Of a stretch of DNA of 64,000 nucleotides, positions 15,117-60,354 are shown one piece after another (the stretch's first letter is position 1; the number at the start of each line of letters is the position of its first letter). The notes beneath the pieces are model-generated. The model searched no databases. It was not told where the DNA came from and worked only from the letters and a program-made list of their open reading frames with translations. Source of the stretch: Patescibacteria group bacterium. Lineage in GTDB: Bacteria > Patescibacteriota > UBA1384 > CAJBMM01. The stretch covers positions 70,197 to 134,196 of the forward strand of contig JBAZWC010000001.1 in assembly GCA_041660565.1 (NCBI GenBank). The letters are read 5' to 3'. The position numbers and the translations under genes were made by a program.

Positions 15117-15125
15117 TTTCCTCTT

Positions 15126-15758: not shown

Positions 15759-15765
15759 CTCACAC

Positions 15766-15839
15766 GGAGGGGTGGGTGCGCAAGCGCCCACTCCTCTTCA
15801 TTCCAAAGTTTCCAATACGTTGGGGACTTTGTAGATGAA
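15766..15839 (+). promoter_or_regulatory. Conserved inter-cassette element, copy 2 (hairpin plus 45-nt box)
   Basis: ggaggggtgggtgcgcaagcgcccactcctc followed by ttcattccaaagtttccaatacgttggggactttgtagatga. Confidence 0.6.
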
Positions 15840-15843
15840 GAAA

Positions 15844-15955
15844 TGACTCCCCGTAGGGGATGGTATACACTTCGGGTGGGTCGCGACGACTCGCACCTAC
15901 CCACGACCCGCCTGACTAGGGGTGAAACTCTGGCAGGCAACAGGGGAGAACGGAA
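15844..15955 (+). ncRNA. Conserved about 110-nt leader type A, copy 1 (candidate cis-regulatory 5' UTR)
   Basis: More than 90% identical to 16791-16899 although the downstream ORFs are unrelated; contains CCCCGTAGGGG and GGGTGGGTCGCGACGACTCGCACCTACCCACGACCC stem potentials; ends in RBS GGGGAGA. Confidence 0.4.
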
Positions 15956-16618
15956 ATGGCTACAGGAAATATGTCATGGCTTGGCTTGGAAGTTGAGCCG
16001 ACCGTCGACGCAAAGTACCGCGTCGATTGGCAGCAATATGGTGGCCCGCGCGGCGGCCAGATGGTCGTCCGCTATGCCACTCGCGAGTGGCTGGAGATGG
16101 CGGTCAACTTCCGGGTTGCACCGTACACCGGAGAGCACTTCATCTCCGACTCCTGCTTCGAGAGCAGCCGGGAGGAGGAGTACATGGTGGCCGCCGCTCG
16201 CCGAACGGCAATGCGGCACGGCATGCTCCCTGACGTGCCAGGCCCGCAGGTCGGATATTGTGTCCGCCTGCAGCACTACCTGGGCCAGTGGTCGGCGGAG
16301 AACTTCCCGGCGACCACGAACGTGCCAGACGGGCATGTGGCGTCTCGGGGCACCGATCAGATGCCCATCTTCGGAATCGTCGATGGGTGGGCGGATGACA
16401 CAATATCCGGCCCTCCCACCCTTCGGGTGATCGTGAAGCGTGAAGCGCTCAGAATCATTGAGCGCGAGGTCAGGGCAGCCGCCAGTGCGGATGCCAGGGT
16501 TGCCCGTACCGGCTTCCTCACGGCGGAGGACGTGGACATGTCCACGGGCACGTATTCGCGTGTCTACGAGGCAATGATTCGGGTTTACCGTGGACATGTC
16601 GTAGCCTCAAACCAGTAG
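15956..16618 (+). CDS. Hypothetical protein, cassette 3
   Basis: 220 aa, about 62% GC; overlapping minus-strand ORFs judged GC shadows. Confidence 0.5.
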   Translation: MATGNMSWLGLEVEPTVDAKYRVDWQQYGGPRGGQMVVRYATREWLEMAVNFRVAPYTGEHFISDSCFESSREEEYMVAAARRTAMRHGMLPDVPGPQVGYCVRLQHYLGQWSAENFPATTNVPDGHVASRGTDQMPIFGIVDGWADDTISGPPTLRVIVKREALRIIEREVRAAASADARVARTGFLTAEDVDMSTGTYSRVYEAMIRVYRGHVVASNQ

Positions 16619-16716
16619 ACATACGCAATAGAAGTTTTTGGATCGTTCTTCGGCAAAAACGATCTGGCATCCCGATGCGCATAATCGGGAGGTTCGCGAT
16701 CCAAATCGCATTCGTT

Positions 16717-16788
16717 GAGAGGCGGGTGCAACCGCACCCGCCTCTCCTCATTCCAAAGTTTCCAAAAGGTTGGAGACTTTGTAGATGA
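16717..16788 (+). promoter_or_regulatory. Conserved inter-cassette element, copy 3 (perfect 13-bp hairpin GAGAGGCGGGTGC-AAC-GCACCCGCCTCTC plus 45-nt box)
   Basis: Read directly. Confidence 0.6.
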
Positions 16789-16790
16789 AT

Positions 16791-16899
16791 CGACTCCCCG
16801 TAGGGGATGGCAATACGCTTCGGGTGGGTCGCGACGACTCGCACCTACCCACGACCCGCCTGACTAGGGGTGAAACTCTGGCAGGCATAAGGGGAGACG
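16791..16899 (+). ncRNA. Conserved leader type A, copy 2
   Basis: See 15844-15955. Confidence 0.4.
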
Positions 16900-17475
16900 A
16901 TGAGTACGACAACAAGTGGAACCAGCCCTGGGCGACGCACCTTCTACTACGGGCGGTCTGGTGGCTTGCACGCCACCGGCGAGGCAGCAACGCGGCTGCT
17001 GGAGATCATCAGGCAGCCGCCGTACGATCTCCTCCCGTTCCTTGGAGGAGAGGATATTAGTCTTCCAGAAGGTACGGGTCTCGCAGATGTCGCGAAGTGC
17101 GAGGCGTTTTTCACGCCATGGGTCAAGGTCTGGGCGCCGCGTCGAATCGTTCGTTACCTGTTGTCGCTGGTGCCAGAGGCGACTTACCACTGGTGTCCGT
17201 GGGAGGGAAAGATTCCTGCGGGATGGCTGACCATCCCGAACTACGACAGCCAGGTTCCTCAGTCCTTCCTGGACTGGGTCGCGGAAACCGGAGGAGTTTT
17301 TGACGAGCCCTCCGGCGGAGCGGTCTGGCTCAAGTGGCCGAACATGCGGCAGGTACATGTCCAGTTCGAGAAGGGGGATTTCCCGGAGGATCTGATTATC
17401 TCCGGAAACGGCCGTAGGTGGTATCTGGAGCGGTATGCCAACGGCCTGGAGATCCTCAACATCCGCGAAGTCTAG
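16900..17475 (+). CDS. Hypothetical protein, cassette 4
   Basis: 191 aa; RBS AGGGGAGA. Confidence 0.5.
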   Translation: MSTTTSGTSPGRRTFYYGRSGGLHATGEAATRLLEIIRQPPYDLLPFLGGEDISLPEGTGLADVAKCEAFFTPWVKVWAPRRIVRYLLSLVPEATYHWCPWEGKIPAGWLTIPNYDSQVPQSFLDWVAETGGVFDEPSGGAVWLKWPNMRQVHVQFEKGDFPEDLIISGNGRRWYLERYANGLEILNIREV

Positions 17476-17481
17476 TCTACT

Positions 17482-17556
17482 GGAGGGTAGGGCGCTGTTC
17501 GCGCCCGCCCTCCTCATTCCAAAGTTTCCAAAAGGTTTGGGGACTTTGTAGATGAA
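17482..17556 (+). promoter_or_regulatory. Conserved inter-cassette element, copy 4
   Basis: GGAGGGTAGGGCGC-TGTTC-GCGCCCGCCCTCC hairpin plus 45-nt box. Confidence 0.6.
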
Positions 17557-17761
17557 TTTAGACAGGTTGGTCGGTTCGTATGTGCATCATATTTTATGAA
17601 TCATATACGAGCTGGTTACCCTGCCAACTTGGCCCTCCTCGGGCTTATGCCGTTCAGGCGTAAGGGAAAAAGATGCGTATGGCGCATAGCCGCGCATCTG
17701 CTTTGTAGGCCATCTAAGCCGTAAGGCAAAGTTGACCGAACCCCTGGGAGGGGGAATAGAA

Positions 17762-18892
17762 ATGGCAACAATCGCCTTTCGCAAGAAGGGTGAGACGGCT
17801 GAGCTGCCGCTCACGGGAATCGTGGATCCGTCCACGGTGACAGTATGTGACACCGCGCCGAGTGGTGCGCCTGTTGCAAAACGGGACCGACTTCAGTATA
17901 AGTTGGTTCCCGTGCCGGAGGGGACGTTGCGCCTTCGGATCCCAGTCGTACAGATCCGGTCGTCGCAGCTGTACGACGGCTGGATGACAGCCCGGGAATT
18001 TTGGGATAACCACCCAGACTTCCGGGGCGCTATCCTTAATGTGGATAGCGGGTTAAGGGCGTTCAGTGTGATCAACACGCTGTTTGCCCGGTTCGAAGAC
18101 GTTTGGCCCGGGCACCCCGTCCCGGCCGATATTCTTGCCGCGAGGCAGGAGATCGCCGAGGAAAAGCGGCTGGCGGCCGCTGAGGAAGTGGCCCGCCAGG
18201 AAAGTCAAAGGTCGTGGGACGCTATGTTGCAGAAAACCCACGACCTGATTGCCCTGGTGATGGGCGATATACCAGAAATCGTTCGTCATCAGAACGAATA
18301 CTGGAGTTTCTCGGTGAGTTCAATGGAGAGGTCGGTTTCTCTCCATACCCTTATACAGGGTGTGCGCTTCTACTTTGTCGCTAAGCATAATGACGTGCAG
18401 GTGGCGGCAAGGAGGGTGCTTGCCCTCCGCGATGAGTGGCGCACCAGTCCTCCCGGGGGCTTCGTCTTTTCTCCTGATACCCAGACGTACTGGGATTTGA
18501 AGGAGGAGAGCTGGAGTGGGGGGTGGCGGCTGGACGAGTGGTGCCGTGTGGCCAAGTGGCTGCGCGAGCAACACGAGGCCGCCGAGAAGGCGGCAACCGC
18601 GGAAGAAGCGGAGGAGCGCCAGTGGCTCTTCCAGTTACGCGGGATCATGATCCCTCCCCTGTACGGGGAGCAGCTGGTGGCTGTCCCAATGGTGGATAGC
18701 CGCGCTTGTTCGCCCAACGAGGCTAACTGGTGGGGGCTTTACACCCCCGACGGCAAGCCATACCTGATCCGTCGCGGGATCCACGTCCGGTACAGCTCTC
18801 TTGAGGGGCTGATCCGGAACCACTATCGGGACGAGCGGGGGATCATGGAGGAAGCGCTTTTATTGCTTTCTTCATTGATCCACTCGCTGTAG
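17762..18892 (+). CDS. Hypothetical protein, cassette 5
   Basis: 376 aa from ATG 17762 (RBS GGGAGGGGG). Its about 130-nt leader (type B) is about 80% similar to the leader of cassette 1 (14090-14215). Confidence 0.5.
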   Translation: MATIAFRKKGETAELPLTGIVDPSTVTVCDTAPSGAPVAKRDRLQYKLVPVPEGTLRLRIPVVQIRSSQLYDGWMTAREFWDNHPDFRGAILNVDSGLRAFSVINTLFARFEDVWPGHPVPADILAARQEIAEEKRLAAAEEVARQESQRSWDAMLQKTHDLIALVMGDIPEIVRHQNEYWSFSVSSMERSVSLHTLIQGVRFYFVAKHNDVQVAARRVLALRDEWRTSPPGGFVFSPDTQTYWDLKEESWSGGWRLDEWCRVAKWLREQHEAAEKAATAEEAEERQWLFQLRGIMIPPLYGEQLVAVPMVDSRACSPNEANWWGLYTPDGKPYLIRRGIHVRYSSLEGLIRNHYRDERGIMEEALLLLSSLIHSL

Positions 18893-19185
18893 CCCAAAGC
18901 GTTTTGGTAGTTTTTCGCATAATGAAACTAGCCACTGGGGTGGGGAAGAAAATAAATCTTCCTCACCCAACTGTCCCCCGCAAGAAACGGGGCTGATGAG
19001 TCGTTGAAAATTACGACGAAACAGATAAGGAAATTAAATCAGCTTGAGCGTAAAAAACCAAGCATGCTCACCGACGGATTATAGCCGTTTTGGCACCGCA
19101 AGATTATATAATCGTTTTAGCAATAAGACGGTTGTTACTACCGAATCTTGCGGGACCAAAGCGGCTTTTTGAGTACCAAAATTCT

Positions 19186-19400
19186 AAATCCGAAGCACTA
19201 AATCCGAAGCACTAAATTCGAAACAAATTCGAAATTGAAAATTCAAAATCGTAAAACGGGCGGACATCCCCCTTCGCCACCTCCTACGCTACCTCCTACG
19301 CTAAAGCTTCGGAAGGTCAAGAAAGCTACGGAAGGTCAAGAAGGCTACGGAGGACAAGTATGAGTCCGCCCCTACGGTGCTCGTCAGGCTGACCGTAAGG
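19186..19400. repeat. Microsatellite-like (AAATYCGAAGCACTAAAT) plus GGGCGGACATCCCCC..CCTACGCTAAAGCTTCGGAAGGTCAAGAA..GTCCGCCCC module repeat
   Basis: Module near-identical to 60530-60640 and partly to 6499-6560. Confidence 0.6.
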
Positions 19401-19467
19401 TCTGGTGTTGATCAAAATGAACATATCTGTTAAAATAAGTACATTGGTAGCCAGAATATTAATAATT

Positions 19468-19543
19468 GCCGACGTAGCTCAGTTGGTAGAGCAACTGTTT
19501 TGTAAACAGTCGGTCCGCAGTTCAAGTCTGCGCGTCGGCTCCA
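19468..19543 (+). tRNA. tRNA-Thr (anticodon TGT)
   Basis: Acceptor GCCGACG/CGTCGGC, D-arm GCTC-AGTTGGTA-GAGC, anticodon stem ACTGT/ACAGT with loop TTTGTAA, T-arm CGCAG-TTCAAGT-CTGCG, CCA encoded. Confidence 0.8.
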
Positions 19544-19553
19544 AATAATTTGT

Positions 19554-19639
19554 GCCGGGATGGTAGAGTGGTCAATTACATCAGACTGTAAATCTGACGC
19601 CTTACGGCTTCGGAGGTTCAAATCCTTCTCCCGGCACCA
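19554..19639 (+). tRNA. tRNA-Tyr (anticodon GTA), type II with long variable arm
   Basis: Acceptor GCCGGGA/TCCCGGC, anticodon stem-loop TCAGA-CTGTAAA-TCTGA, long variable arm, T-arm GGAGG-TTCAAAT-CCTTC, CCA encoded. Confidence 0.75.
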
Positions 19640-19655
19640 TTTTTTGTTCGCATCT

Positions 19656-19731
<76 letters not shown>

Positions 19732-47244: not shown

Positions 47245-49050
47245 TTATTTTCTAGCGCGGGAGCGGTCTAGGGCGTGGAGTAGTTTTTTGCGTAGGCGCA
47301 AAGACTTCGGAGTTACCTCTAGCAACTCATCATCCTCTAGAAAGTCGATTGATTGCTCTAGCGACAAATTGGTTGGCGGAGTTAGCTGCACCGAAATATC
47401 CGAGTTAGACGATCTAATGTTAGTTAACTGTTTTTCTTTACACACGTTAATTTCAATATCTTGCTCGCGCGTGTGTAATCCCACAATCATTCCCTCATAA
47501 ACTTCGGTTTGTGGCGGAATAAAGGTGATGCCACGCTCTTGCGCGTTGGCCAAGCCGTACGCTACCGCTTTGCCGCTTTGCGAGGCCATCAACGCGCCCA
47601 AACGCATTTTCGGAATAGCGGCGCCCATTGGCTCAAAGTGCAAAAACAACGAACTTAACGCCGCGGTGCCGCGTGAAATAGTTAATAATTGATTTCTAAG
47701 TCCCAGCATTCCTCTGGTGGTAATGTGAAAACACAATCGGGTTGTGCCGTCTTGCTGAACTTCTTGATACTGCATGATGCCGCGTCTGCGGCTGACTTCG
47801 CTGGTAACGGCGCCGGCGTGTTCGCTTGCTACATCAATAGTCAACTCTTCAAGCGGCTCACATTCAACATCATCTACCATTTTAGTAATGATTTGCGGTT
47901 TGCCAACTTGTAGCTCAAAGCCTTCGCGGCGCAAAGTTTCAATAAATACGGATAAATGCAGCTCACCCCGCCCCGAGATGATAAATTCGCCGTTATTTTC
48001 CTCTAATCGCATTGAAACGTTGGTTTCCAGCTCTTTTTTGATGCGATCTAAAATTTGGCGGCTGGTGACAAATTTGCCTTCGCGCCCGGCAAACGGGGAA
48101 GTATTGGCGCCAAACGACATCTTTAAGGTTGGCTCTTCAATAGCGATGGTTGGTAATGCCTCTGGATTTGTAGAGTCTGCCACGGTTTCGCCAATGCGCA
48201 CCCCTTTTAAGCCGGTCATTGCCACAATTTCACCCGCTTCCGCCATATCAACTTCTACTCGTTTAAGCCCGCGATTAACGTAAACTTTTTCAATTCTGGC
48301 ATTGGTTAGATTGCCAGTAGGGGAGATCACAGTTACATTCAACCCGGGTTTGGCGGTGCCACGAACAATGCGGCCAATGGCGTAGGTGCCTTGATACGAG
48401 TCCGCGTCTAAAGCGGTTACCAGCATTTGAAAAGTACCGTCAGACACTTCTGGCTCCGGTACATAGTCTAATATTGCCTCAAAAATCGGGGTTAGATCGG
48501 CTGATTCATTTACATTTGCGGGTAATTCTTTCCACGATTTGCCCTCGCGGCTGATAGCGTAAAACACCGGAAAATCCAAATGAGCTTCGTCGGTGGCTAA
48601 ATCCAAAAATAAATCTTGAGTACGGCGAATAACGGTTTCGATTCTGGCGTTTGGTTTATCAATTTTGTTGATGACTACAATTACTTTCAAACCTAGATCT
48701 AGCGCTTTTTTAAGTACAAATTTGGTTTGCGCCATCGGGCCTTCTTGTGCATCGATGATGAGCAAAGCACCATCAGCCATATTTAGAGTACGTTCTACCT
48801 CACCGCCAAAATCGGCGTGTCCGGGAGTATCAATGATGTTAATTTTGGTGTCTTTGTAAAAAACGGCGGTGTTTTTGGCTAAAATGGTAATGCCACGCTC
48901 GCGTTCTTGATCAGACGAGTCCATGATTAAATCTTGGGTCATCCAGGCTTCGTTATCACGAAAAGTGTGAGATTGCTTTAACAAAAAATCAACCAAGGTA
49001 GTTTTACCGTGGTCAACGTGAGCAATAATGGCAACGTTGCGTATTTTCAT
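47245..49050 (-). CDS. typA: Translational GTPase TypA/BipA
   Basis: AHVDHGKTT G1, DTPGHADF G3, NKID G4, EF-G-like domains; 601 aa. Confidence 0.85.
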   Translation of the reverse strand: MKIRNVAIIAHVDHGKTTLVDFLLKQSHTFRDNEAWMTQDLIMDSSDQERERGITILAKNTAVFYKDTKINIIDTPGHADFGGEVERTLNMADGALLIIDAQEGPMAQTKFVLKKALDLGLKVIVVINKIDKPNARIETVIRRTQDLFLDLATDEAHLDFPVFYAISREGKSWKELPANVNESADLTPIFEAILDYVPEPEVSDGTFQMLVTALDADSYQGTYAIGRIVRGTAKPGLNVTVISPTGNLTNARIEKVYVNRGLKRVEVDMAEAGEIVAMTGLKGVRIGETVADSTNPEALPTIAIEEPTLKMSFGANTSPFAGREGKFVTSRQILDRIKKELETNVSMRLEENNGEFIISGRGELHLSVFIETLRREGFELQVGKPQIITKMVDDVECEPLEELTIDVASEHAGAVTSEVSRRRGIMQYQEVQQDGTTRLCFHITTRGMLGLRNQLLTISRGTAALSSLFLHFEPMGAAIPKMRLGALMASQSGKAVAYGLANAQERGITFIPPQTEVYEGMIVGLHTREQDIEINVCKEKQLTNIRSSNSDISVQLTPPTNLSLEQSIDFLEDDELLEVTPKSLRLRKKLLHALDRSRARK

Positions 49051-49472: not shown

Positions 49473-51083
49473 TTATTCCGGCAAGGTGTTAAAGTAAAAA
49501 CCTTCGTACTGTTTAACGGCGGCGTTATATTTTTCTAACAACTTATTATAATCTGCAATGGCGCCGTTGTATGAGTCTATGGTGCTTTTGTATTGATTAT
49601 ATTTTTCCGAATACGCGTTATATTTTTGCTCTGTAGGGTCTGCCAGATAGTTTTTATAGAATTGATCTTGAGATTTCTCCAAAGACATAATATTATCATA
49701 CTTTTTCTGTAACAAAATTTTCTCATCCGCTAGTTGGTTATACATTTTTTCAATGTCTTGTTTAAGCGTTTTTATCTGCACAATGCGTTCATAAGATTTA
49801 CCGCTATTAATATCTACCACAAATCGCGGCGCTGTTAATGCTTTCTTACGTTCCACCGAAATGGTATCCGGATTTTCGCTAGCCGAAATTGGTTTTACCT
49901 CAGTAATGTCTAAAACCGGCACACCATTATTATCATTTATGCTTTCCGGAATATCGCCTGGAATAAAAGCCGGATTCGTCATCTCTGCATAAGTATACTT
50001 TGTGTTAAAATCGGTATATCCACTAGGAGCGCTAATTCCTAGCGCCATATGATTATCATCATTAAACGAGAAAATGCCGGTGCCGTAGCCCAATTTATTC
50101 AGTATTATGCTGCCCAAATACGTTTTATCGGTACAAATTCCCTTATTTTTAGATAAAGTTACGTAAGGATATTGCTCGGTGTCGGCGGTGTTGCCGGTTA
50201 CGTTCAAAACTATTTCTGCCTTTGCATCATCGTACGGGATATTCTGCACAAAACAGGTGGCAAGCTCTAGCGTCTGATCATCATTCAAATTGTTGGCTTT
50301 GCCCACGGCCACAATATCGCTAACCAGCTTATCAACGGTATTATCTTTGTCGTTTTGATAAATAAATTTGGCAAACTGGTTTTTGGCAAAATATGAGGTA
50401 TTAAGCAAATAATTGTGCTGAGTGTAGTAGTGATTCACGTTTTGGTGCGTTACTACATCTACCTTCAAATCTTTGCCCGAATATTTGCAATTCAAAGTGG
50501 TGGTTTTGGGGTGATTGGGAAATGGGGGATAAATTCCCAAATAACCTTCGTTTGCGCCATAACCCAGCCCGCATAGCAAAATGATGACGAATGTGGCCAG
50601 CTTTAGAATATGAAATACACGCTTGGAGCGGGTAGTAGGCGCAGGTGATGTTGCTTCGCGATATCTAAATGCCCAATGCTTATTAGTAAAAAATCCCCAC
50701 AACGTGGCCAAAGTAAATGCGGCCGAAAACCCGATGTAGCGGGGCAAATGTAAGTAAATTGCACTGGTAAGAATCAGAAAAGTTAGTCCGTATATTACTA
50801 AGCCAACAATATAAATTATAAAAAACTTTAATACCAAATGGCGTGGCGCAGACCCGGCGGTATTAAAAACACGTTTTCTGACAAATAAAAAACACACGTC
50901 AATGGCGGCAATTAAAGCAATAAATACCGCAATCAGCTCTCTTTCTTGACTAAACAGGCTGAAACTTTCTCTAAGCGTGGCAAAAAATATCAAAAAAAGC
51001 GCAATGAATATTATATTGGCAATGACATATTTAACAAACTGCCCCACAGCAGGATATAATTTGATGCTGAAAATCTTCCGCAT
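49473..51083 (-). CDS. Membrane protein: GtrA-like 4-TM N-terminus, extracytoplasmic transglutaminase-like Cys-His-Asp core, C-terminal coiled coil
   Basis: GICTD(C) ... NHMALGI(H) ... GYTDFN(D) with spacing compatible with the transglutaminase-like cysteine protease fold; Y/N/K-rich heptad C-terminus. Confidence 0.45.
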   Translation of the reverse strand: MRKIFSIKLYPAVGQFVKYVIANIIFIALFLIFFATLRESFSLFSQERELIAVFIALIAAIDVCFLFVRKRVFNTAGSAPRHLVLKFFIIYIVGLVIYGLTFLILTSAIYLHLPRYIGFSAAFTLATLWGFFTNKHWAFRYREATSPAPTTRSKRVFHILKLATFVIILLCGLGYGANEGYLGIYPPFPNHPKTTTLNCKYSGKDLKVDVVTHQNVNHYYTQHNYLLNTSYFAKNQFAKFIYQNDKDNTVDKLVSDIVAVGKANNLNDDQTLELATCFVQNIPYDDAKAEIVLNVTGNTADTEQYPYVTLSKNKGICTDKTYLGSIILNKLGYGTGIFSFNDDNHMALGISAPSGYTDFNTKYTYAEMTNPAFIPGDIPESINDNNGVPVLDITEVKPISASENPDTISVERKKALTAPRFVVDINSGKSYERIVQIKTLKQDIEKMYNQLADEKILLQKKYDNIMSLEKSQDQFYKNYLADPTEQKYNAYSEKYNQYKSTIDSYNGAIADYNKLLEKYNAAVKQYEGFYFNTLPE

Positions 51084-51164: not shown

Positions 51165-51791
51165 TTATTTCTTAAATCTTAAATCGAATGCCTTTGGCAG
51201 CTCAGAAAATGGAATCAGTCCAAATTCCTTGTAATTTTCAGGAAGTTTGAGTAATTCCGGTAGAGATAGTTTTGTCATAACGTTGTATTCTCCCAATGCC
51301 ATATCCAATAATATGTAGGCTAGGGAGGTAAAAGCTTTGTTTGATGAGTCGTAGCCGTCAATGTATATTTTTAGTGCCATTCTCTCGCCGCCGCTATCAT
51401 TGTATGAAAAATACATATCTTTATTCGGATCGATATTTAATTTACCTATTGAGAACGCTGTTATAGAGCCAACCCTTGGCTTGAATGCAATAACTTTCCA
51501 AACATCCAAATCAGGTGCAACGTTAACAAGTTTTTGTACAGAATCGATTAGAGGGGGAATTCCATCGGGAGTAACAATGAACTCCCTTTTTCCGTTAACC
51601 GTTGGGCCAAATAAATAAACTATGCCTTTAGCAACCTTTTGCATTTCTGAAAAAAGTTGGTTGCAGATACGTTCTCGGCCTGTTCGAACGGCCATTAATT
51701 CGTCTGAATGATCAGAAAACCACCTCCAAAATCGTTCTTCCTTTGTTGCGGGCAATGTTCCATTATCTTTTAGTCTTCTGTTAAAAAACAT
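51165..51791 (-). CDS. Hypothetical protein; second candidate immunity protein downstream of the RHS toxin
   Basis: 208 aa, no signal peptide, same strand, 23 bp after the preceding gene. Confidence 0.4.
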   Translation of the reverse strand: MFFNRRLKDNGTLPATKEERFWRWFSDHSDELMAVRTGRERICNQLFSEMQKVAKGIVYLFGPTVNGKREFIVTPDGIPPLIDSVQKLVNVAPDLDVWKVIAFKPRVGSITAFSIGKLNIDPNKDMYFSYNDSGGERMALKIYIDGYDSSNKAFTSLAYILLDMALGEYNVMTKLSLPELLKLPENYKEFGLIPFSELPKAFDLRFKK

Positions 51792-51814
51792 ATAATTTCT
51801 TTCTTTACTAAACT

Positions 51815-52774
51815 TTAATCAACAAAATACGCTGGTTCTGCCTCGAAACCGCTTACTTTATTCTCTTTTAAAATTCGATAAAGCCTCTGAGAAATTATTA
51901 TGAATGGGTGTAAGTATTGCAATGATCTAAATTGAGACGTCTTAGCAAAATCTGTATTAGGCCAATTCTTGCGGTTAAAATAAAAACTCGTTCCTATACC
52001 TGGGCCAGCTGTTGTTCTAAATCCTTCAATAACCTTGTCGTACAACGGATTTGGTTCGAGCTGGTCTTCCAACTCTAGTTTGTGAAATTTTATGCCAAAT
52101 TTGGTCGGTGGCACACTGTAACCGCATGTTGGAACAACATTTAGCTGATAGAAATCTTTTGATAATTTTTTCTCGTCAGAATAATAATCAACGTCTTCTG
52201 CGCTTTCTTTTATTTTTACAGGTCTGTATACAGGATCAATTTTACACCCAGTAACCTTATTTTTCTCCAATATCTCTTTAAGTCGTTTTGAGATAATTGT
52301 TTCATCTGAAAATGTTTTTTGTATGTCTTTCTTGGATAATTTGCTCACATTAATTCTTAGGGGCGATATCTGTTTTTTTATTTCCCAACTATCCACCGTT
52401 ACAATCGGCTGGCCAACACCTTTAATGTTCATTGTATATTCTTTCCCCGTCCCGCCCTTGCCAAGTACTTCATATTTTGTACCGTACTCTTCCGCAAACA
52501 TTTCATTTGGAACGTCGGCGATTCGATTAAGATACAATATTTCAGCTGACCTCATCTCTGATTCAGAGAATTTATTTAACGCCAAAGGTGAATATGCATT
52601 TTCTGGGTTGTGCTCCCAATAGTCAAATATTGATTTAAAATCATGATTGTTCGTGCACACTCTCACCGCAAAAATAGATGTGTTGTTTGGTTCGTGTTCC
52701 AAGTGATGGAATTTATCAATAAATGATTGTGGAATTTTATCTCTATGGAATCTAAATGAATATTCTATTTGCAC
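51815..52774 (-). CDS. Hypothetical protein with two internally repeated modules; candidate immunity protein for the RHS C-terminal toxin
   Basis: Starts 10 bp after the RHS stop; KRLKEILEKNKVTGCKIDPVY and QRLYRILKENKVSGFEAEPAY indicate an internal duplication. Confidence 0.4.
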   Translation of the reverse strand: MQIEYSFRFHRDKIPQSFIDKFHHLEHEPNNTSIFAVRVCTNNHDFKSIFDYWEHNPENAYSPLALNKFSESEMRSAEILYLNRIADVPNEMFAEEYGTKYEVLGKGGTGKEYTMNIKGVGQPIVTVDSWEIKKQISPLRINVSKLSKKDIQKTFSDETIISKRLKEILEKNKVTGCKIDPVYRPVKIKESAEDVDYYSDEKKLSKDFYQLNVVPTCGYSVPPTKFGIKFHKLELEDQLEPNPLYDKVIEGFRTTAGPGIGTSFYFNRKNWPNTDFAKTSQFRSLQYLHPFIIISQRLYRILKENKVSGFEAEPAYFVD

Positions 52775-52783
52775 GAAATTTCC

Positions 52784-55700
52784 TTATTTAATTTCTTTTA
52801 GAAAATTGTCAATCGGTAATTTATCATAAACTTTCTTTATTACTTCTCCCACTTCCTTTTCCCACTGGGAGTAGTCATTCTGCTTTAGCAGCCGATAATA
52901 TTCCGCAGCTTTACCGTATGCCACCTCAGCTCTAAATGCATTGGTGATTTGTTGGTGATATTCTTTGGGAATTATTGCCCGCACTGCTTTGGCAGCACCA
53001 CCGAGATATTTTGGGATAATATGATGCGATTCAGTTTTAATAACATTTTTTGCGGTGTTGACTGCGGTGCTTGTTTTTGCAATGTTTGCTGCAGTTTTTG
53101 TAGTAGAGCCACCACCTACAGGTGTCAAATCCCCAACAAGTCCGACACCCGCAATTATTTTGTCCGTTTTAGTTGTATTTGGGTCGAATACTGTACTCAC
53201 GTCGTTTGCAATTAAACATTGCATCACTGGGCTATTGGCAATGTAAAATAGTGAAGCTAGAATCAAAGGCGAGTAGATTATTAAAGGAGCCAAGAAAATA
53301 ATTTTACCGCTGGGATCTGTGTGTGTTAATGGGCTATTATTACAATAGATATATGGATTTGATCCTAGTGCGGTATTATCTGCAACAACAGGGTCTTGGC
53401 TGGTGAAACGTCCTAAACTTGGATCGTACATCCTAGCTTTCATATAGTATAGCTTAATCGTGCTGTCATACCAATACCCGGCATATAGACGAGGGTTTAA
53501 TTTATCCAGATTATTTTGTGGAGCTGGTGGCTGAGGTACGGCTCGGGAATCTGGTGTCGGCCCACCCATAGTTGAAACTGTTACATTGCCCCATGCATCG
53601 TAAGAGTATGAAACTAAACGGTTGCCAGATGCATCTGTAAGCCCAGTAATGTCTGAATGGCCGTTTTTAAGGTAATAATAGGTCTGCGGATTGTTGTTTG
53701 TGTCTGGAATGGTTACGGACGATAAGTTTTCATCTTCGTCCCAAGTGTAAGTGCGCAGCATTTTTCCTGCCGCGTCTGTTTCAGAAACCAGCTTGTCTCC
53801 GTCATAGACAAACTTGGTAGTAGAAACAACGCCGGTGGGTGATGTTTCGGTGCGGGTGGCTCGCTGTTTGGTTAATTCGTTGTAGGTGTATTCTACCGTA
53901 GTGTTGTCTGGTGTTATTGCTTTAATAAAGTAGTCATCGGCATCATAGAAATACTGGGTAATGCCGTTTTTACTATCGGTTACTTTTGTAACATTGCCGT
54001 TTTTATCATATTCGTACGTTTTTGTTCCGTTAACGGTGCTGGTTTCTTTGATAAGGCGGTTTGCATCACCCAGTTCATCATAGGCGTAGGTAATGGTTTC
54101 GGCCGCCGTAGTTTTCTTGGTGCGGTTGCCCATTAAATCGTATGAATAAGTGGTACCGTTTTCACCGGTTAACTGGTCACGTGCATCGTATGCGTAGGTA
54201 CGTGTGCCGGTTAGCGAATCTATAGCGGTGGTAATATTTGAATTAGCATCGTACGTATATGAAATCTGTTGTTGTATGGCGCCGGCTTTATATTTGTTAA
54301 CTACCTGTTTAACTCTACCGGAGGTGTCGTAGGTGTAGGAAGTGGTATCACCATTTGGTTTTTTAACCGCTGTTAATTTGCCTTCGGCGTCTTTGGTCAA
54401 AATGTTGGTTAGCACTTGGCCGGTTTGAGCCAGGGTGGTTGAAACTTGGCTAACTTCTTGGTTGGCATCGTATACGGTGGCTACAGTGGCGGTAGAAACG
54501 GCGCTAGTAACCACGTTATCGTTTTTGTCGTAGGTTAGGGTATTGTTGCCGGTAATGTTAGATTGAACTGCGGTAACATTATCATTTTTATCATAGGTAA
54601 TGGTGTCGTTTTCAGATTTTACGGTAGATGTGGTCTGAACTACATTGTCGTTTTTATCGTACGATACGCTTGTGGTGCCATCTTTGTCGGTAATTTGGGT
54701 TGCATTACCATTTTTGTCAGTTGTGGCGGTGGTGGTGCTACCGGATTGATCTGTGGCAGACGTAATATTGCCATTTCTATCGTACACTGCTGTTTCGGGA
54801 ACGCCGGTGGCATCAGTTGTTTTGGTTAGCTGGTTTAGCTCGTCGTAGGTATTAATGGTCATTTTGCCTTTGGCATCCGTAGTTTTAACTACATTGCCAA
54901 CAGCATCAAAGGTGGTGGAAGTTATTGCTCCCACCGCATCGGTAAGTTTGATCTGCCGGTTTAATTTATCATAAGTGTAAGTAGTGACGTTTCCTTTGGG
55001 GTCAATATCTTTTAGTTTGTTGCTGTTTTTATCATATTCGTATCGGTTTGTAATGCCAGCCGGGTCTTTAATGCTGGTTAGGCGCCCCAAATTGTCATAA
55101 GCATAAGTAAGCGTGTTTCCCATGGCCGATTTCTCGGTTAGTTTGCGGCCAACGGTATCGTACGTAAAGGTAGATGTCTCTAACTTTGGCGACACGGTGG
55201 TTAACACATCGCCATCTGCGGTGTATGTAAATTTGGTTATGGCTCCTTTAGAATCGGTAACGGTAACTTTGTGCCCCTTGGCATCATAAGTAGCTGAATC
55301 TACATTTCCCTTGGCGTCTGTTGTAGATAACAACAACCGGCGGCCGTCGACCGAATAGGTGGCGGTGGTAACATTACCTTTTGGATCGGTAGTTTTAACT
55401 AAGTCGTAGCCCGCATAAACATTGGTGGTGGTGGCGTCCATTGGGTCTTTGGAAGTCAATAAGTTATCATTTGCGTCGTAGGTGTTGGTGTAATTAAAGT
55501 AGTAATATTCGTTTTCTGGGAGGTCTGGGGTAATAGTGGTAACGTTATAATTTCCATCATTACCGTAAATTTGGCGATAGCCTTTGGGGTTGGTAAAGTT
55601 AATTAACAAATTGTTCTGGTCAAAAGTGGCGTTAGATTTTCGCCCCAAAGCGTCTGTTATATCAACCGACCGATTATTGTATGACAGTTTGCTGCTGTTG

Positions 55701-58700
55701 CCCAGTGCGTCTTTAACCTCTGAAACGCGGTTTTGAATATCGTAATAAATGTAAGTAGAGCTGCCGTTTTTATCCACATACCTGGTCATTTTTCCTGCTG
55801 GTGTGTACTGATAGGCATATAATCCACCCAGCGGGTCTATAACACTTGTTAATTTAAACGGCGTTACGGTGGTGTTATAAGAATATGTAATTTTTTGACC
55901 AAGTTGGTTGGTAACAGTTTCTAGCCGTTTGCCGGTGTAGGTAAGTGTTATAAAGCGCCCGCCATCCACAATTTTGGTGACATTCCCATTTGTGTCTCTG
56001 TTATAGGATATGGTATTGCCGGAAAGATCAACTCGTTTTTGCAACAGCCCAGTGCTAGAAAAGTAGGTTTTTAACCCGGATTTAGAAATAATGGCGTAAG
56101 TGTTGTCTGCGTTTTTAACTAAGTCTATGGAAAGACCGGTTGGGCGTTTGTACGTTCCATTTGCGTTCCTAGAAAAAATATCTACCGCGCCGGTGCCGTC
56201 TTGGTACATTACATTATCCGGGTCAGCAAAGTTTAGATACTCATCAAAACTGGCACGCCATCCTTGTCCCATGGTAGCGGTGGTTGTAAGTGGAAGTTGA
56301 TTATCGGTATCTAGCAATAAGCCGGTAATTTGTGTGTTGTCGGTATTCAAAAATCTAGCCGAAAGCGCCCAAGCAGATGAAGCATGTGCTACTTTAAACA
56401 TTACTTTATTCCAACCAGCTAAAAGCGGCACATCAACCGAGTCGCTATCTAGGGTAATGCCGCGCAGAACATCTTTAAGCCAAACCATGTTGCCGTTAAC
56501 CCACACCTTTACGCCATCTGCCGAGCCAATTTTTAAGCGATACGTTTTGGCGTTAAGAACATAAACATTAGTATACGCGTAAACAGTGGCGTTACTGTTG
56601 TAACCGGATTCAACTGAGCCAGCGCTAGCTAACGCGGCGCTAATATCTAATGCCGGCGTTGCCGATGAGGTTTTGAACCACAAGTTGCTAGATGAAACCG
56701 AGCCAACCGTTGGTTGTGCTGTGGCTTCATTAGCAATAAATGCCTTTGATAGCCTGCCGGCCTGATTGCTTTCGCGGTATGGGCCGTTAACTAGCCAACT
56801 GCGAATATAACCATTTGCATCTGGAACAGTTGGGGTGTTGGCTAAGGTAGAGTTATATGACCGCCCAACTGCCAGCAAGCCGGTGTTAGATGGCACAGTC
56901 ATATCTGTACTGGAATAAGCTACGTTTCCTGTTGCCAAGTCTATTGGCCCGGCTTTGGTGTAATATTTTTCATCACCTAAATGAATAGAGCTAGAAAGCG
57001 CGGGGTTGGTAATAGCTATTGCAATGTTTTTAGTAGCCACGTTTTGAGTTGAAAACCAAGTTTTGTTGTTTACCTGATACATATCTAGCTGCAAAGTGTA
57101 GTTGCCGGCGTTTAGTGGAGCTGGAACATTTAATAATATGTTTCCAGTAGCACCGTATTTTGCCACATCAGACTGGAAATTTTGTGGGGTGCCATTGAAA
57201 ATATAAGTTTGCCCGGCAGAATCAACCCAGTGATATCCGAGTTGAAACTGTCCAATTGGCCAATTTTGGTTACTCATATTCGTAACTGACATTGGCAAAG
57301 AAATGGTACTATTCGCAGTGGCGCTAGTTGGCGGGTTATTTAGGTTGTATGTGGCACCGTACGCGGGGTAGTCAATGGCGGTTAAGCTAACGTCTTTGGT
57401 GGGTACACCCTGTTCGGAAAACCACGTTACACCTTCTTGTACCATGTCCCATTTAACTGTGTAATTTCCGGGTATACTTGGAATTTTTACAGTTGCATTA
57501 AGAACTACTCCATCACCATGAGGGGCAATATCTCTTGGCAACAGCGTCCGCACGCCATCCCATGTTACTAATTGCCCCGCAGAATTATAAATGTGATAAC
57601 TTAAATGTGTGTCAGATTTTAACCATGTATTTCGTCCGGTGTTTTGCGCGACCACGTCAATTGCACCACTTGTATCAATTAATTGAGACCCTAAATTATT
57701 TGTAGAATATTCAGCATAATAATCACGATAATCTATTGTTAGCCGTGGTTCATATTCTAGCGGAGTGGTGGGGTCGTTTTCAGCCACCCATATTCGGTAA
57801 CCACTAGGATTTTCCCAGTCAGATTTAAATGCCAGTGCTCCGATCCATGATCCATTTTGGTTATGCGATTCAAACCAATATTTTAAGGCGTTCGTCACAT
57901 TCATTGCATAATTTGGACCGCTATCGCCATATTGATACCCAACTTCTCCTATTCCTAGTGGCTGATTATTCCAGTTGACAGTCTTTGAATTAAACCAAGG
58001 CACGAGATTGGCTGTTACTCCAGAGACGGAGCATATCTGTACACAGGCTTTTTGGCGGACAGTAAAAGTGGCGTTGATAATATTTGCGTCGGTTAGATCT
58101 GGGATACTAAACGGAATTAGGGTGCGTGTTAGCCCTTTGCGGTATGTCCCTTCTTGGTGATTTCCCACATACAAATTGGCTTGATCCCAAGTGCTGGTAT
58201 TTGGATAATACTGTTCAACGTAGCTATCCTCACCGTAATGCAAATCTACCACCACGGTAGGGTCAATTACTACCGGATAAACTCGAGCGGTGTCTGAAAG
58301 CCACTGCGCATCTGGGGTCATGGTCAAAACATAACCACCAGTTTCCGGTTCCAGCGCCACACTTATGGCATCGCTATATTCATTTGCTTCGGAATCTTTG
58401 CCACCCCGCGCGTCCCACATTGTCATTTTGGGAATATAAAATGCTGTTTTTTGGTCTTTGTCCAAAAAGCTAATTGACCCGTCATCGCCTTTTTGGGCGG
58501 TAACACCGGTGGTTTGCAAGTGATAAACAAAGCTGGTTTGAGTGGGTTTTTGATTTAGGGTAATTTCTTCTTTAACGCCTTCCGGGATAGCGTAATAAGT
58601 TACATTTATACCCGGTGTAACATTGCCGTAGGTAATTTGGTTATTTTTAACTGCCGTGCTGGGGGTAAACAGGGTGGAAAGTTGAAGATTAGATAGATTC

Positions 58701-59161
58701 AAGGCATTTGGTGCCGGTGCTGTGGCTTCTAGCGCAAAGCTAACCTCGTTGCCGTTGCTAGAAATAGAGACCGGTTTGTCTGATAGTTGGTTAGGCAAAG
58801 ATAGGATGAATGAGTTGGCGCCGTTTTTATATCCGTTGTCGGTGGGTAATAAATTATTATCAATTTCTTTCCATACGGTTTTGCCATTTTCGGTTGCCGA
58901 GTAGTTTATTGGAGTGGAATAAACTACCGCTTGCATTGTGCCATCCGGTTGTTGGAAAGTCTTGGAATATTCGCCGCGTTTATCAGTAATTTCTTGCGGT
59001 ACGGTGATGGGCGGTTTGGGGGGTAAAGTAAATTGAGTGTCAGATACCGGCGCGGGGGTTGGTTGTGCGGCCGGAGTGGCGGCAAATGCAGACGCGGGCA
59101 GATTGGGGATGGTAAACATCACCATCAGTAGGTAGATAAAACCCTTTTTAATTGACGCCAT
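52784..59161 (-). CDS. RHS/YD-repeat polymorphic toxin (2125 aa) with signal peptide and C-terminal HNH-fold nuclease-like (SHH/AHH-type) toxin domain
   Basis: Many YD repeats (Y.YD..GN....TD..G..T.Y.YD); RHS core end ...PYIYCNNSPLTHTDPSGK (DPxG); about 170-aa C-terminal tail with ESHHIIPKYLGG. Confidence 0.8.
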   Translation of the reverse strand: MASIKKGFIYLLMVMFTIPNLPASAFAATPAAQPTPAPVSDTQFTLPPKPPITVPQEITDKRGEYSKTFQQPDGTMQAVVYSTPINYSATENGKTVWKEIDNNLLPTDNGYKNGANSFILSLPNQLSDKPVSISSNGNEVSFALEATAPAPNALNLSNLQLSTLFTPSTAVKNNQITYGNVTPGINVTYYAIPEGVKEEITLNQKPTQTSFVYHLQTTGVTAQKGDDGSISFLDKDQKTAFYIPKMTMWDARGGKDSEANEYSDAISVALEPETGGYVLTMTPDAQWLSDTARVYPVVIDPTVVVDLHYGEDSYVEQYYPNTSTWDQANLYVGNHQEGTYRKGLTRTLIPFSIPDLTDANIINATFTVRQKACVQICSVSGVTANLVPWFNSKTVNWNNQPLGIGEVGYQYGDSGPNYAMNVTNALKYWFESHNQNGSWIGALAFKSDWENPSGYRIWVAENDPTTPLEYEPRLTIDYRDYYAEYSTNNLGSQLIDTSGAIDVVAQNTGRNTWLKSDTHLSYHIYNSAGQLVTWDGVRTLLPRDIAPHGDGVVLNATVKIPSIPGNYTVKWDMVQEGVTWFSEQGVPTKDVSLTAIDYPAYGATYNLNNPPTSATANSTISLPMSVTNMSNQNWPIGQFQLGYHWVDSAGQTYIFNGTPQNFQSDVAKYGATGNILLNVPAPLNAGNYTLQLDMYQVNNKTWFSTQNVATKNIAIAITNPALSSSIHLGDEKYYTKAGPIDLATGNVAYSSTDMTVPSNTGLLAVGRSYNSTLANTPTVPDANGYIRSWLVNGPYRESNQAGRLSKAFIANEATAQPTVGSVSSSNLWFKTSSATPALDISAALASAGSVESGYNSNATVYAYTNVYVLNAKTYRLKIGSADGVKVWVNGNMVWLKDVLRGITLDSDSVDVPLLAGWNKVMFKVAHASSAWALSARFLNTDNTQITGLLLDTDNQLPLTTTATMGQGWRASFDEYLNFADPDNVMYQDGTGAVDIFSRNANGTYKRPTGLSIDLVKNADNTYAIISKSGLKTYFSSTGLLQKRVDLSGNTISYNRDTNGNVTKIVDGGRFITLTYTGKRLETVTNQLGQKITYSYNTTVTPFKLTSVIDPLGGLYAYQYTPAGKMTRYVDKNGSSTYIYYDIQNRVSEVKDALGNSSKLSYNNRSVDITDALGRKSNATFDQNNLLINFTNPKGYRQIYGNDGNYNVTTITPDLPENEYYYFNYTNTYDANDNLLTSKDPMDATTTNVYAGYDLVKTTDPKGNVTTATYSVDGRRLLLSTTDAKGNVDSATYDAKGHKVTVTDSKGAITKFTYTADGDVLTTVSPKLETSTFTYDTVGRKLTEKSAMGNTLTYAYDNLGRLTSIKDPAGITNRYEYDKNSNKLKDIDPKGNVTTYTYDKLNRQIKLTDAVGAITSTTFDAVGNVVKTTDAKGKMTINTYDELNQLTKTTDATGVPETAVYDRNGNITSATDQSGSTTTATTDKNGNATQITDKDGTTSVSYDKNDNVVQTTSTVKSENDTITYDKNDNVTAVQSNITGNNTLTYDKNDNVVTSAVSTATVATVYDANQEVSQVSTTLAQTGQVLTNILTKDAEGKLTAVKKPNGDTTSYTYDTSGRVKQVVNKYKAGAIQQQISYTYDANSNITTAIDSLTGTRTYAYDARDQLTGENGTTYSYDLMGNRTKKTTAAETITYAYDELGDANRLIKETSTVNGTKTYEYDKNGNVTKVTDSKNGITQYFYDADDYFIKAITPDNTTVEYTYNELTKQRATRTETSPTGVVSTTKFVYDGDKLVSETDAAGKMLRTYTWDEDENLSSVTIPDTNNNPQTYYYLKNGHSDITGLTDASGNRLVSYSYDAWGNVTVSTMGGPTPDSRAVPQPPAPQNNLDKLNPRLYAGYWYDSTIKLYYMKARMYDPSLGRFTSQDPVVADNTALGSNPYIYCNNSPLTHTDPSGKIIFLAPLIIYSPLILASLFYIANSPVMQCLIANDVSTVFDPNTTKTDKIIAGVGLVGDLTPVGGGSTTKTAANIAKTSTAVNTAKNVIKTESHHIIPKYLGGAAKAVRAIIPKEYHQQITNAFRAEVAYGKAAEYYRLLKQNDYSQWEKEVGEVIKKVYDKLPIDNFLKEIK

Positions 59162-59352
59162 TTTTACTCCTTTATCTTGTTACGTTAAAAAAAATCGCGA
59201 CAGTGCGCGATTCGATAATTTTAAATTGAAACCATGCTGCTCTCTGGCAATATACAGTAAACAAAGTTGTCTAAGTAATCTTTCAGGTTATTGTGGATAT
59301 TATTCATAACACCTTTGTTGTATTCTTATTGTTTACGCTTGTCAATACTCCT

Positions 59353-60354
59353 TTATAGTCCCATTGCGGATTTGACGTTGTCTAGAGTTTTGATGGCTTC
59401 TTTGCGGGCCGCAATAGTACCTTGTTCCAAAATATCATCCAATAAAGCGCGTTTGTTATGCAATTTAGCACGATCTCTAATTGGATCTAAATATTTATTT
59501 AATGCTACCGCTAGAGCTTTTTTGACTTCAACGTCTCCAACTTGGCCTTTGGCGTATCTGTCTTTGAAGTCGGCCACCTGATCTTTATTGGCATTGAATA
59601 AATCGTGATATATAAAGACAGGATTTCCTTCTACTTTACCCGGGTCGGTTTTGCGGATTCTATTTGGGTCGGTGTACATAGACATCACTTTTTTGGTGAC
59701 TACCTCGGGATCGTCAAGCAAACCAATGGCATTGCCCAGGCTTTTGCTCATTTTGGCATTGCCGTCTGTGCCAATTAGGGTGGCGGTGTTAGACAGTAGT
59801 GCTTTTGGTTCTGGTAAAGTATTACCGTACATTTGATTAAACCGAGCGGCAATTTCACGCGTCACTTCTAGGTGGCTAGACTGATCAACACCAACCGGCA
59901 CCGTGTCTGCACCAACCATTAATATATCGGATGCCATTAAAACCGGATATTCCAGCAAACCAAGCGAGGCGTTGGTGATATGTAAATTGTCCATTTGTTC
60001 TTTTAATGTGGGCACGCGCTCTAATCTCGCTACCGAAATTATCATACTAAGTATGACAAATAGCTCGCACACCTCTGGAATGGCGGATTGGCGATAGATG
60101 GTTACTTTGTGTGGATCTAGCCCAACTGCCAAATAGGTGAGTACTTGGTTGCGGATGCGATCTTGGATATCGGCAATTTCGGATTTTTGTGATTTAGTAG
60201 TGAGCGAATGCAGATCCGCTACGATGATAAATGTTTGATATTTGTCTTGTAGCTCAACTCGTTTTTGTAACGACCCGACTAAATGTCCCAGGTGCAGCGC
60301 GCCGGTGGGACGATCACCAGTTAGAATTCTGTTTGGTTTAAGATTATTTTCCAT
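59353..60354 (-). CDS. trpS: Tryptophanyl-tRNA synthetase
   Basis: PTGALHLGH (HIGH), YPVLMASDIL, VPVGVDQSSHLEVTREIAARFN, KMSKS; 333 aa. Confidence 0.8.
   Translation of the reverse strand: MENNLKPNRILTGDRPTGALHLGHLVGSLQKRVELQDKYQTFIIVADLHSLTTKSQKSEIADIQDRIRNQVLTYLAVGLDPHKVTIYRQSAIPEVCELFVILSMIISVARLERVPTLKEQMDNLHITNASLGLLEYPVLMASDILMVGADTVPVGVDQSSHLEVTREIAARFNQMYGNTLPEPKALLSNTATLIGTDGNAKMSKSLGNAIGLLDDPEVVTKKVMSMYTDPNRIRKTDPGKVEGNPVFIYHDLFNANKDQVADFKDRYAKGQVGDVEVKKALAVALNKYLDPIRDRAKLHNKRALLDDILEQGTIAARKEAIKTLDNVKSAMGL

Follow-up and report, generated by a model that had tools for sequence, protein, structure and literature searches.

A probable Sec-exported RHS polymorphic toxin locus with a putative divergent His-Me nuclease tail and a candidate cognate immunity protein in a Patescibacteria genome

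The DNA considered here, referred to throughout as the window, is a stretch of 64,000 nucleotides of contig JBAZWC010000001.1 (assembly GCA_041660565.1) from a Patescibacteria group bacterium, a source that agrees with the small-genome, epibiont-like organism proposed in an earlier note made from the sequence. It carries three minus-strand open reading frames (ORFs) of 2125, 319, and 208 amino acids (aa) at the coordinates that the earlier note had given for them. In our reading, which we hold to be quite probable, the first two form a Sec-exported, WapA-like RHS polymorphic toxin locus, in which the RHS protein ends in a divergent His-Me nuclease tail and is countered in the producer by its cognate immunity protein, the 319-aa product. 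The three genes are the following:

52784-59161, minus strand: RHS/YD-repeat polymorphic toxin gene, 2125 aa, ATG start, from the ORF and its Pfam and NCBIfam matches
51815-52774, minus strand: candidate cognate immunity gene, 319 aa, GTG start, from linkage to the toxin domain, weak Imm11/SitI6 matches, and an internal duplication
51165-51791, minus strand: ORF of 208 aa, ATG start, from the ORF list; an orphan immunity role is possible but unsupported

The 319-aa ORF lies just downstream of the RHS gene as had been described, with 9 nt between the RHS stop codon and the GTG rather than the 10 bp first given, and an AGGA Shine-Dalgarno-like motif is found inside this gap. The GTG start matches the N-termini of the homologs of the 319-aa protein. 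The next ORF downstream on this strand is the 208-aa one, 23 nt beyond the end of the 319-aa gene.

The identity of the 2125-aa protein as an RHS protein is beyond doubt, because it matches the Pfam models RHS_repeat (E = 3.4e-77, 16 stretches) and DUF6531 and, in an NCBIfam scan, the YD repeat model TIGR01643 (E = 2.2e-47, 9 stretches) and the Rhs_assc_core model TIGR03696 (aa 1854-1952, E = 1.4e-18), along with stretches of NF041261 RHS_core. The parts of the protein, from the N-terminus onward, are laid out on the window as follows:

59081-59161, minus strand: predicted Sec signal peptide, aa 1-27, MASIKKGFIYLLMVMFTIPNLPASAFA followed by AT, read by eye from the translation
53303-56224, minus strand: YD-repeat shell, approximately aa 980-1953, which ends in the Rhs-associated core; from RHS_repeat and RHS_core stretches, boundaries approximate
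53306-53602, minus strand: Rhs-associated core, aa 1854-1952, with YDPSLGRFTSQDP (aa 1912-1924) and DPSGK; from TIGR03696
53204-53302, minus strand: hydrophobic pre-toxin segment, aa 1954-1986, with a mean Kyte-Doolittle (KD) hydropathy of 2.35 over 19 aa
52787-53047, minus strand: C-terminal toxin domain, aa 2039-2125 (87 aa), a putative His-Me/HNH-like nuclease of an unnamed HH...HQxITNxFR family; from the HMMER family and an AlphaFold2 (AF2) model
53021-53029, minus strand: S2045-H2046-H2047, with the invariant HH that ends predicted strand 1 (columns H26/H27 of alignments A1 and A2)
52931-52960, minus strand: Y2068-HQQITNAFR-2077 at a predicted helix start, with invariant Y, H, Q, I, T, and R and near-invariant N and F

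Read by eye, the first residues look like a Sec signal peptide, with a KK n-region, a hydrophobic core (KD 2.32 over 12 aa), and an AxA-type c-region. At the other end of the protein, the conserved core closes with ...PYIYCNNSPLTHTDPSGK (aa 1936-1953), after which a tail of 172 aa begins. The terminal motif of the core, DPSGK (aa 1949-1953), lies at the expected self-cleavage site and has a K where L or W is usual in the DPxG-x motif. Aspartyl autoproteolysis at the C-terminus is established for RHS/Tc toxins, and by analogy with RHS/Tc structures the window protein would cleave itself at DPSGK. The tail opens with the hydrophobic pre-toxin segment, continues as a Gly/Thr/Ala-rich linker up to approximately aa 2038, and contains ESHHIIPKYLGG at aa 2044-2055 in the toxin domain, which has an isoelectric point (pI) of 9.3. 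The proposal of an RHS polymorphic toxin with a variable tail is supported by the RHS and YD models and the tail swapping described below, and its secretion is predicted from the Sec-type signal.

The tail domain belongs to a conserved and widespread family that occupies the C-terminus of toxins of RHS, Hint, and other kinds. A word-indexed search for homologs of the tail gave no matches, and an exhaustive HMMER search of 1.84 billion cluster representatives gave 204 tail-family proteins at E <= 1e-3. In 146 of the 150 best matches residues ~85-170 of the tail are covered, and the domain is always C-terminal within the matched protein; 13 of these 146 proteins are at least 1000 aa long, and in several members the Hint C-terminal motif ...VWVHN precedes the domain. 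The family consensus is YPxKAGKxExHH-IxPKYLGG-x3-G-x3-IPaaYHQxITNaFR-x4-YG ... VYxxFPLP, and the residues that are invariant in alignments A1 and A2 (H, H, G, Y, H, Q, I, T, and R) are all kept in the window copy. When 185,579 species genomes were scanned with the toxin profile, at least 126 loci were detected, of which 79 were kept, and these are distributed among the Acidobacteriota, Bacteroidota, Planctomycetota, Myxococcota (with many Archangium copies), Chloroflexia/Chloroflexota, Verrucomicrobiota, Spirochaetia, and Patescibacteria. We regard it as very likely that the tail is a toxin of some enzymatic kind. A few tail-family members, among them P0116 and P0153, have lost the HH (LLHVIPKYLGG; GYCIYPKYLGG) with the motif otherwise intact, and such copies may represent toxin cassettes that are decayed or orphaned.

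The 79 loci were chosen by the toxin profile alone, independently of the partner gene, and in 71 of them a complete ORF, nearly always of 250-350 aa, lies within ~250 nt downstream of the toxin ORF. A hidden Markov model (HMM) based on the 319-aa protein together with three close homologs, which are 37-44% identical to it, matches 60 of these 71 downstream ORFs (E = 4e-42 to 5e-9), and a wider HMM matches 62. A linkage that places family members directly downstream in 62 of 71 loci from several phyla is what is usually seen for toxin/immunity pairs; that the 319-aa protein is the cognate immunity partner is therefore almost certain, and it is predicted to neutralize the tail. One of its homologs, P0002 (299 aa), is encoded directly after a 2277-aa RHS protein in GCA_039738575.1 (locus L001), and the tail of that RHS protein is homologous to the window tail (QSHHIDPIVAGGAKRALRAIIPVTLHQDITN..., 50-55% identity over the domain). 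The earlier note had taken both downstream ORFs for sequence-orphan candidate immunity genes. In the case of the 319-aa ORF, the immunity assignment is upheld by the linkage in 62 of 71 loci and by L001, while the same family takes away its orphan status; the 208-aa ORF is nearly an orphan, with one homolog of 34% identity, and showed no link to toxin loci in the searches made with it.

A second downstream family, of ~265 aa (250-285) and with a W-x-x-S-D-D-x-E-R motif, is found in loci L014, L019, L029, L040, L048, L051, L066, and L078. It replaces the Imm11-like protein in eight of the nine loci that lack the latter (8 of 71 overall) and is likely an alternative immunity family for the same toxin domain.

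The 319-aa family contains a tandem duplication that is real and ancient, as is seen in a 24-aa repeat found by BLASTP between the two halves of the window protein (E = 3e-6) and in an hhalign comparison of the N-terminal and C-terminal halves of the family (91% probability, E = 1e-6, 64 columns), in line with the internal duplication first noticed in this ORF. The families nearest to it are Imm11 and the double-CXXCG proteins, which form one Pfam clan, CL0767, of immunity proteins for AHH-type nucleases (PMC12077181, PMC8546572). Both AHH-Imm11 and SitA6-SitI6 pairs have been studied by experiment in Myxococcus (PMC12077181), the SitA6 toxin modules being described as AHH nucleases (PMC8546572), and in Table 3 of a survey of polymorphic toxins the only partners given for Imm11 are Tox-AHH, Tox-HNH, and Tox-SHH (PMC3482391). 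Among 56 members of the wider partner family, 16 match Imm11 at E <= 0.01 (best E = 9.5e-5), six match Gmx_para_CXXCG, and ten weakly match TIGR02264, the "SitI6 family double-CXXCG motif immunity protein"; the Imm11 match is weak in all 4 close homologs (best 0.0048). A single CxxCG is present in 40 of the 56, two CxxC in none of them. Both cysteine knuckles have been lost from the Patescibacteria branch, composed of the window protein and P0002-P0004, and in the window protein a 19-aa insert stands at the site of the first. Because the Imm11 and double-CXXCG scores are mostly below the curated cut-offs, the partner appears to be a separate family that bridges the two.

Membership proper in either family was considered for the 319-aa protein and rejected. 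As a member of Imm11 (PF07791) it falls below the gathering score and is instead a relative within the clan, and as a member of the SitI6/double-CXXCG family it has the two-module duplication, with no CxxC and no match to TIGR02264.

Over most of its length the window RHS protein is 40-65% identical to three RHS proteins of ~2100-2300 aa. Four proteins, P0007, P0009, P0011, and P0025, match only the first ~96 residues of the tail. In the case of P0011 (2125 aa) and P0025 (2135 aa), identity to the window protein is 40-55% up to approximately aa 2015, the pre-toxin segment included, and falls to 5-25% from approximately aa 2020. P0011 ends in Tox-REase-7, and its gene is followed by a gene for a HEAT-repeat protein, a pairing of toxin and immunity that has been listed before (PMC3482391). 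The survey of homologous RHS loci that had been suggested thus finds, in P0011, a swap to Tox-REase-7 with HEAT, and at L001 both the homologous tail and the immunity homolog are kept. Tail and immunity cassettes swap between related RHS genes, and this joint exchange of a tail with the gene downstream of it is characteristic of toxin/immunity cassettes. The hydrophobic pre-toxin segment is kept in P0011 and P0025 (35-60% identity), which carry a different toxin domain, and is also matched by P0007 and P0009. Patescibacteria RHS proteins may thus share a pre-toxin or translocation element specific to their lineage.

The contig of P0011 carries an aminoacyl-tRNA synthetase gene that is 75% identical to the class-I synthetase gene adjoining the window RHS gene. 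In this arrangement, seen at locus L083 (1407-9641) on a related Patescibacteria contig, the RHS gene, for a protein of the same length as that of the window (2125 aa) with Tox-REase-7 and a HEAT-repeat gene, is on the opposite side of the synthetase gene compared with window positions 52784-60354. Synteny is partial, which suggests local rearrangement around the RHS locus.

Turning to the chemistry of the tail, the AF2 model of the toxin domain, built from an alignment of 53 family members that left out the L001 tail, is confident, with a predicted local distance difference test (pLDDT) of 85.3 and a predicted TM-score (pTM) of 0.74. In domain numbering it orders a strand at 23-27 that ends in HH, the PKYLGG loop, a strand at 40-45, a helix at 46-59 that starts from YHQQITNAFR, and two further helices. 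The start of the helix presents the invariant H49 (aa 2069), Q50, and T53 and the near-invariant N54, while on the first strand H26 directly precedes H27. At the level of secondary structure, the model has the beta-beta-alpha arrangement with a catalytic-type His ending strand 1 that is expected of a His-Me nuclease. The database matches point the same way. PHROG 655, "homing endonuclease," is matched by 12 of the 53 members (best E = 1.3e-4; the window tail at E = 0.018), and the remaining PHROG matches among them are all singletons. Weak Pfam matches among 54 members include HNH (four), AHH (three, E >= 0.019), and HNH_5 (three); NCBIfam HlpB, "HNH nuclease-like," is matched by four of the 54 and by the window tail at E = 0.02-0.05; and a sequence search of the PDB gave Cas8f-HNH at E = 0.85. 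The aligned stretches reported for HlpB, phrog_655, and Cas8f-HNH cover the ExHHIxPxxxGG segment. All recurrent matches of the family are HNH-type, and the others are singletons or doubletons of unrelated families.

The spacing HH-x2-P-x3-GG is the same in the tail family and in colicin E9, ELHHDKPISQGG, the sequence of the latter having been checked against PDB 1bxi. An independent pointer to an HNH-fold toxin comes from the affiliation of the partner protein with the Imm11 clan. As a positional analogy, we take H102/H103 of colicin E9 to correspond to the tail HH and H127 of E9 to correspond to H2069. Indeed, if the tail acts as colicin E9 does, H2047 would be the general base, H2046 and H2069 would be metal ligands, and R2077 would contact the phosphate in a metal-dependent cleavage of nucleic acid at the HH/H site. 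On these grounds a divergent His-Me nuclease of the HNH/EndoVII superfamily is the likely, if unproven, identity of the tail.

Several observations weigh against this assignment and against the locus reading of which it is a part. On the tail or on any of the 54 members, no Pfam or NCBIfam model reaches its curated cut-off. A Foldseek search of the toxin-domain model against the PDB and BFVD gave nothing at E < 2 and returned no HNH structure. The canonical middle Asn of the H-N-H motif is absent from the tail family. When the tail family was aligned with the colicin E9 DNase by hhalign, the match covered 14 residues (ExHHxxPxxxGG) at 4% probability, and we therefore treat the likeness to E9 as a resemblance of motif only. 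On the side of the partner, the 319-aa protein scores 15.7 bits on Imm11 (E = 0.0098), below the cut-off of 22.1, and its AF2 model, made from a four-sequence alignment, is poor (pLDDT 47.9), too poor for a fold search. The signal peptide and self-cleavage come from reading by eye and from analogy, and toxicity, nuclease action, and binding of the tail are predictions from sequence.

The description of the tail as AHH/SHH-type and HNH-like was accurate in part. The HNH/EndoVII-like appearance is retained in the beta-beta-alpha order, the invariant HH and H, and the weak HNH matches, and the scan of the tail against Pfam and NCBIfam gave one weak signal, of HNH type (HlpB), and no threshold match to a named toxin family. 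Membership of the Pfam families AHH and SHH is rejected: no Pfam family matches the window tail at E <= 1, AHH (PF14412) and SHH (PF15652) included, only three of the 54 members touch AHH, below threshold, and SHH is absent from the 25 families listed of the 26 that the 54 members match.

The empty fold searches also leave some room for a toxin that the 319-aa protein neutralizes and that has another or a new fold, for example one related to PT1, or that cuts a different substrate, for instance RNA. The DNase PT1 depends on metal, uses His44/His48 for catalysis, and has been described as having a new topology (bioRxiv 10.1101/2021.10.19.465003), and the HNH signals in the tail family are all below threshold and confined to ~17-40 residues. 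We nevertheless consider such a toxin unlikely. The sequence search found no similarity of the tail to PT1 or to any other PDB chain, the family does not contain the HxT/S motifs needed by 2H phosphoesterases, the clan of the partner is known with AHH-, HNH-, and SHH-type toxins (PMC3482391, PMC12077181), and the one PHROG matched by more than single members, in 12 of 53, is of HNH type.

With respect to delivery, a Pfam scan found no PAAR, VgrG, or LXG domain in the RHS protein, and there is no type VI secretion system (T6SS) or other injection context within the window. Two tandem Ig-like (N_BRCA1_IG-like) repeats are seen at window positions 57419-57646 and in the neighboring N-terminal region of the RHS protein (aa ~500-720); they carry the motif ...PG-YT-KWDMVQEGVTWFS..., and the L001 homolog has three of them. 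The matches to these repeats are weak, and a PA14-like module is matched faintly, for the L001 homolog alone. In the mechanism that we propose, the RHS precursor would be exported by Sec and then displayed on the surface or released, and the Ig-like modules of its N-terminal half, possibly with a PA14-like module in the L001 homolog, may bind the target. The YD cocoon would enclose the tail until the Rhs core (YDPSLGRFTSQDP ... DPSGK) cleaved itself and freed the 172 residues, as RHS/Tc structures suggest, to give a released tail made of the conserved hydrophobic segment, a flexible linker, and the 87-aa basic toxin domain. Entry of the tail into the target cell, perhaps aided by the hydrophobic segment, is speculative. 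In the producer cytoplasm the 319-aa protein, which is linked to the toxin gene and presumably translationally coupled to it, would block the toxin by binding it. We know of no study of RHS toxin delivery in the cell envelope of candidate phyla radiation (CPR) bacteria.

These N-terminal modules, the dependence of CPR bacteria on attachment to a host, and the lack of a T6SS or other injection context within the window could also be accommodated if the RHS protein were mainly an adhesin for host attachment, with the tail and the 319-aa protein as non-toxic cargo and its chaperone or adaptor. This is very improbable, given that members of the tail family sit at the C-terminus of polymorphic-toxin scaffolds (RHS, Hint, and others) from many free-living phyla, that in a close relative the tail and the downstream gene are jointly exchanged for Tox-REase-7 and HEAT, and that the invariant residues of the tail are of catalytic type. 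A bolder extension of the toxin reading is that the CPR epibiont directs a DNase at the bacterium on which it lives and not at its competitors, by means of a Sec-exported RHS protein and without an injection machine, the hydrophobic segment being a self-contained membrane-translocation module common to all tail types of the lineage. If this were true, the breakdown of host DNA would feed an organism that is unable to make its own nucleotides. As a separate possibility, the HH...HQxITNxFR domain could turn out to have a nuclease fold distinct from the His-Me finger. We think these ideas improbable.

Nothing marks the 208-aa ORF as a demonstrable part of the toxin system. Its position directly after the 319-aa gene could nevertheless be that of a second, orphan immunity gene directed against a toxin delivered by relatives. 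At L001 the immunity gene is followed by a HEAT-repeat ORF, like the partner of Tox-REase-7, by a 186-aa ORF, and by a DUF695 ORF, plausibly an orphan-immunity array, and therefore such arrays do occur at loci of this kind. The only homolog of the 208-aa protein in a search over 5.8 billion clusters, P0156, is found on two short contigs among small, unrelated same-strand ORFs with DUF4262 and TPR neighbors, a setting that resembles a poly-immunity locus. On the other hand, no toxin gene lies near P0156 on these contigs, the 208-aa protein matches no Pfam or NCBIfam family, and tblastn and phmmer found no relatives of it in more than 80 toxin loci, L001 and L083 included. Its pI of 8.8 is also unlike the acidic profile that is common for nuclease inhibitors. 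The orphan immunity role is accordingly a doubtful one.

Beyond the three genes described above, the RHS locus has these neighbors in the window:

59353-60354, minus strand: class-I aminoacyl-tRNA synthetase gene, which adjoins the RHS gene
49473-51083, minus strand: gene for a GtrA/transglutaminase-like membrane protein
47245-49050, minus strand: BipA gene

Elsewhere in the window, an island rich in guanine and cytosine (GC) with sharp edges spans 14100-18900, with a GC content of 0.55-0.65 compared with 0.39-0.47 in the flanks. Its plus-strand ORFs at 15261-15758, 15843-16430/15956-16618, 16900-17475, and 17732-18892 resemble real proteins, while its minus-strand ORFs resemble shadow ORFs. 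No Pfam match was found for the plus-strand ORFs and no Rfam match for the region. A Fic/DOC-MerR fusion gene (12215-13204, minus strand) borders the island on one side, and short tandem repeats at 19184-19351 and a tRNA-Thr/Tyr/Thr cluster border it on the other (19184-19731). Such flanks are a typical integration-site setting, and the island was probably acquired horizontally.

What is new at the RHS locus is descriptive, consisting of an uncatalogued family of toxin domains, an uncatalogued family of partners, a minority family of alternative partners, and evidence for the shuffling of these cassettes among CPR genomes. An RHS toxin with an immunity gene in a Saccharibacterium was already on record, as were HNH-type RHS tails with immunity proteins of the Imm11 clan, and the system works like many known ones and holds no conceptual surprise. 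Neither the toxin domain nor the ~290-aa partner scores above threshold in Pfam (2025) or NCBIfam (2026), and naming both families would improve the annotation of polymorphic-toxin loci. The Imm11/double-CXXCG clan, which serves kin discrimination in Myxococcus, would thereby extend to many other phyla. CPR genomes of ~0.5 Mb retain a weapon gene of 6.4 kb in which toxin/immunity cassettes are exchanged, and therefore would be engaged in real antagonism with competitors or hosts.

The window locus can be compared with several known systems. The Saccharibacterium T. rhizospherense encodes an RHS protein with PA14 that has been described as a "possible secreted toxin" with a neighboring immunity gene (PMC6031116). 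Like this protein and the WapA-type RHS toxins of monoderm bacteria, which are Sec-dependent and T6SS-independent, the window protein combines a predicted signal peptide, putative N-terminal binding modules, and a YD shell. Its Rhs core likewise closes with DPxG-x, the toxin that follows at the C-terminus is variable, and the gene directly downstream is that for immunity. It differs from them in that its toxin domain comes from an unnamed family and in that a conserved hydrophobic segment follows the predicted cleavage site. With AHH, Tox-SHH, and the H-N-H motif of colicin E9 the toxin domain has in common an HH that ends a strand, a P-x3-GG loop with the E9 spacing, and a helix after it that opens with a His, and, as for AHH and Tox-SHH, it is C-terminal in RHS and Hint toxins and has an immunity partner related to the Imm11 clan (PMC3482391). 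Unlike these domains, the tail has neither the structural Asn nor the second helix His, in place of which stands the invariant YHQxITNxFR, and it has a helical C-terminal extension of ~45 residues that ends in VYxxFPLP. The DNase toxin domain PT1(Em), which belongs to an Rhs protein and has the immunity protein PIM1 (PDB 8OWS), is a further system that we list as near. The 319-aa protein, in turn, resembles Imm11 (PF07791) and the double-CXXCG/SitI6 family (PF09535, TIGR02264), the partners of Myxococcus AHH/SitA6 toxins, in its weak matches, its location directly downstream of the toxin gene, and its two-module build, and the C-terminal motif IIS-x-RL..IL...G....P is common to the 319-aa family and Imm11/double-CXXCG. 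It differs from them in scores that lie mostly below the cut-offs and in a Patescibacteria branch that does without the cysteine knuckles.

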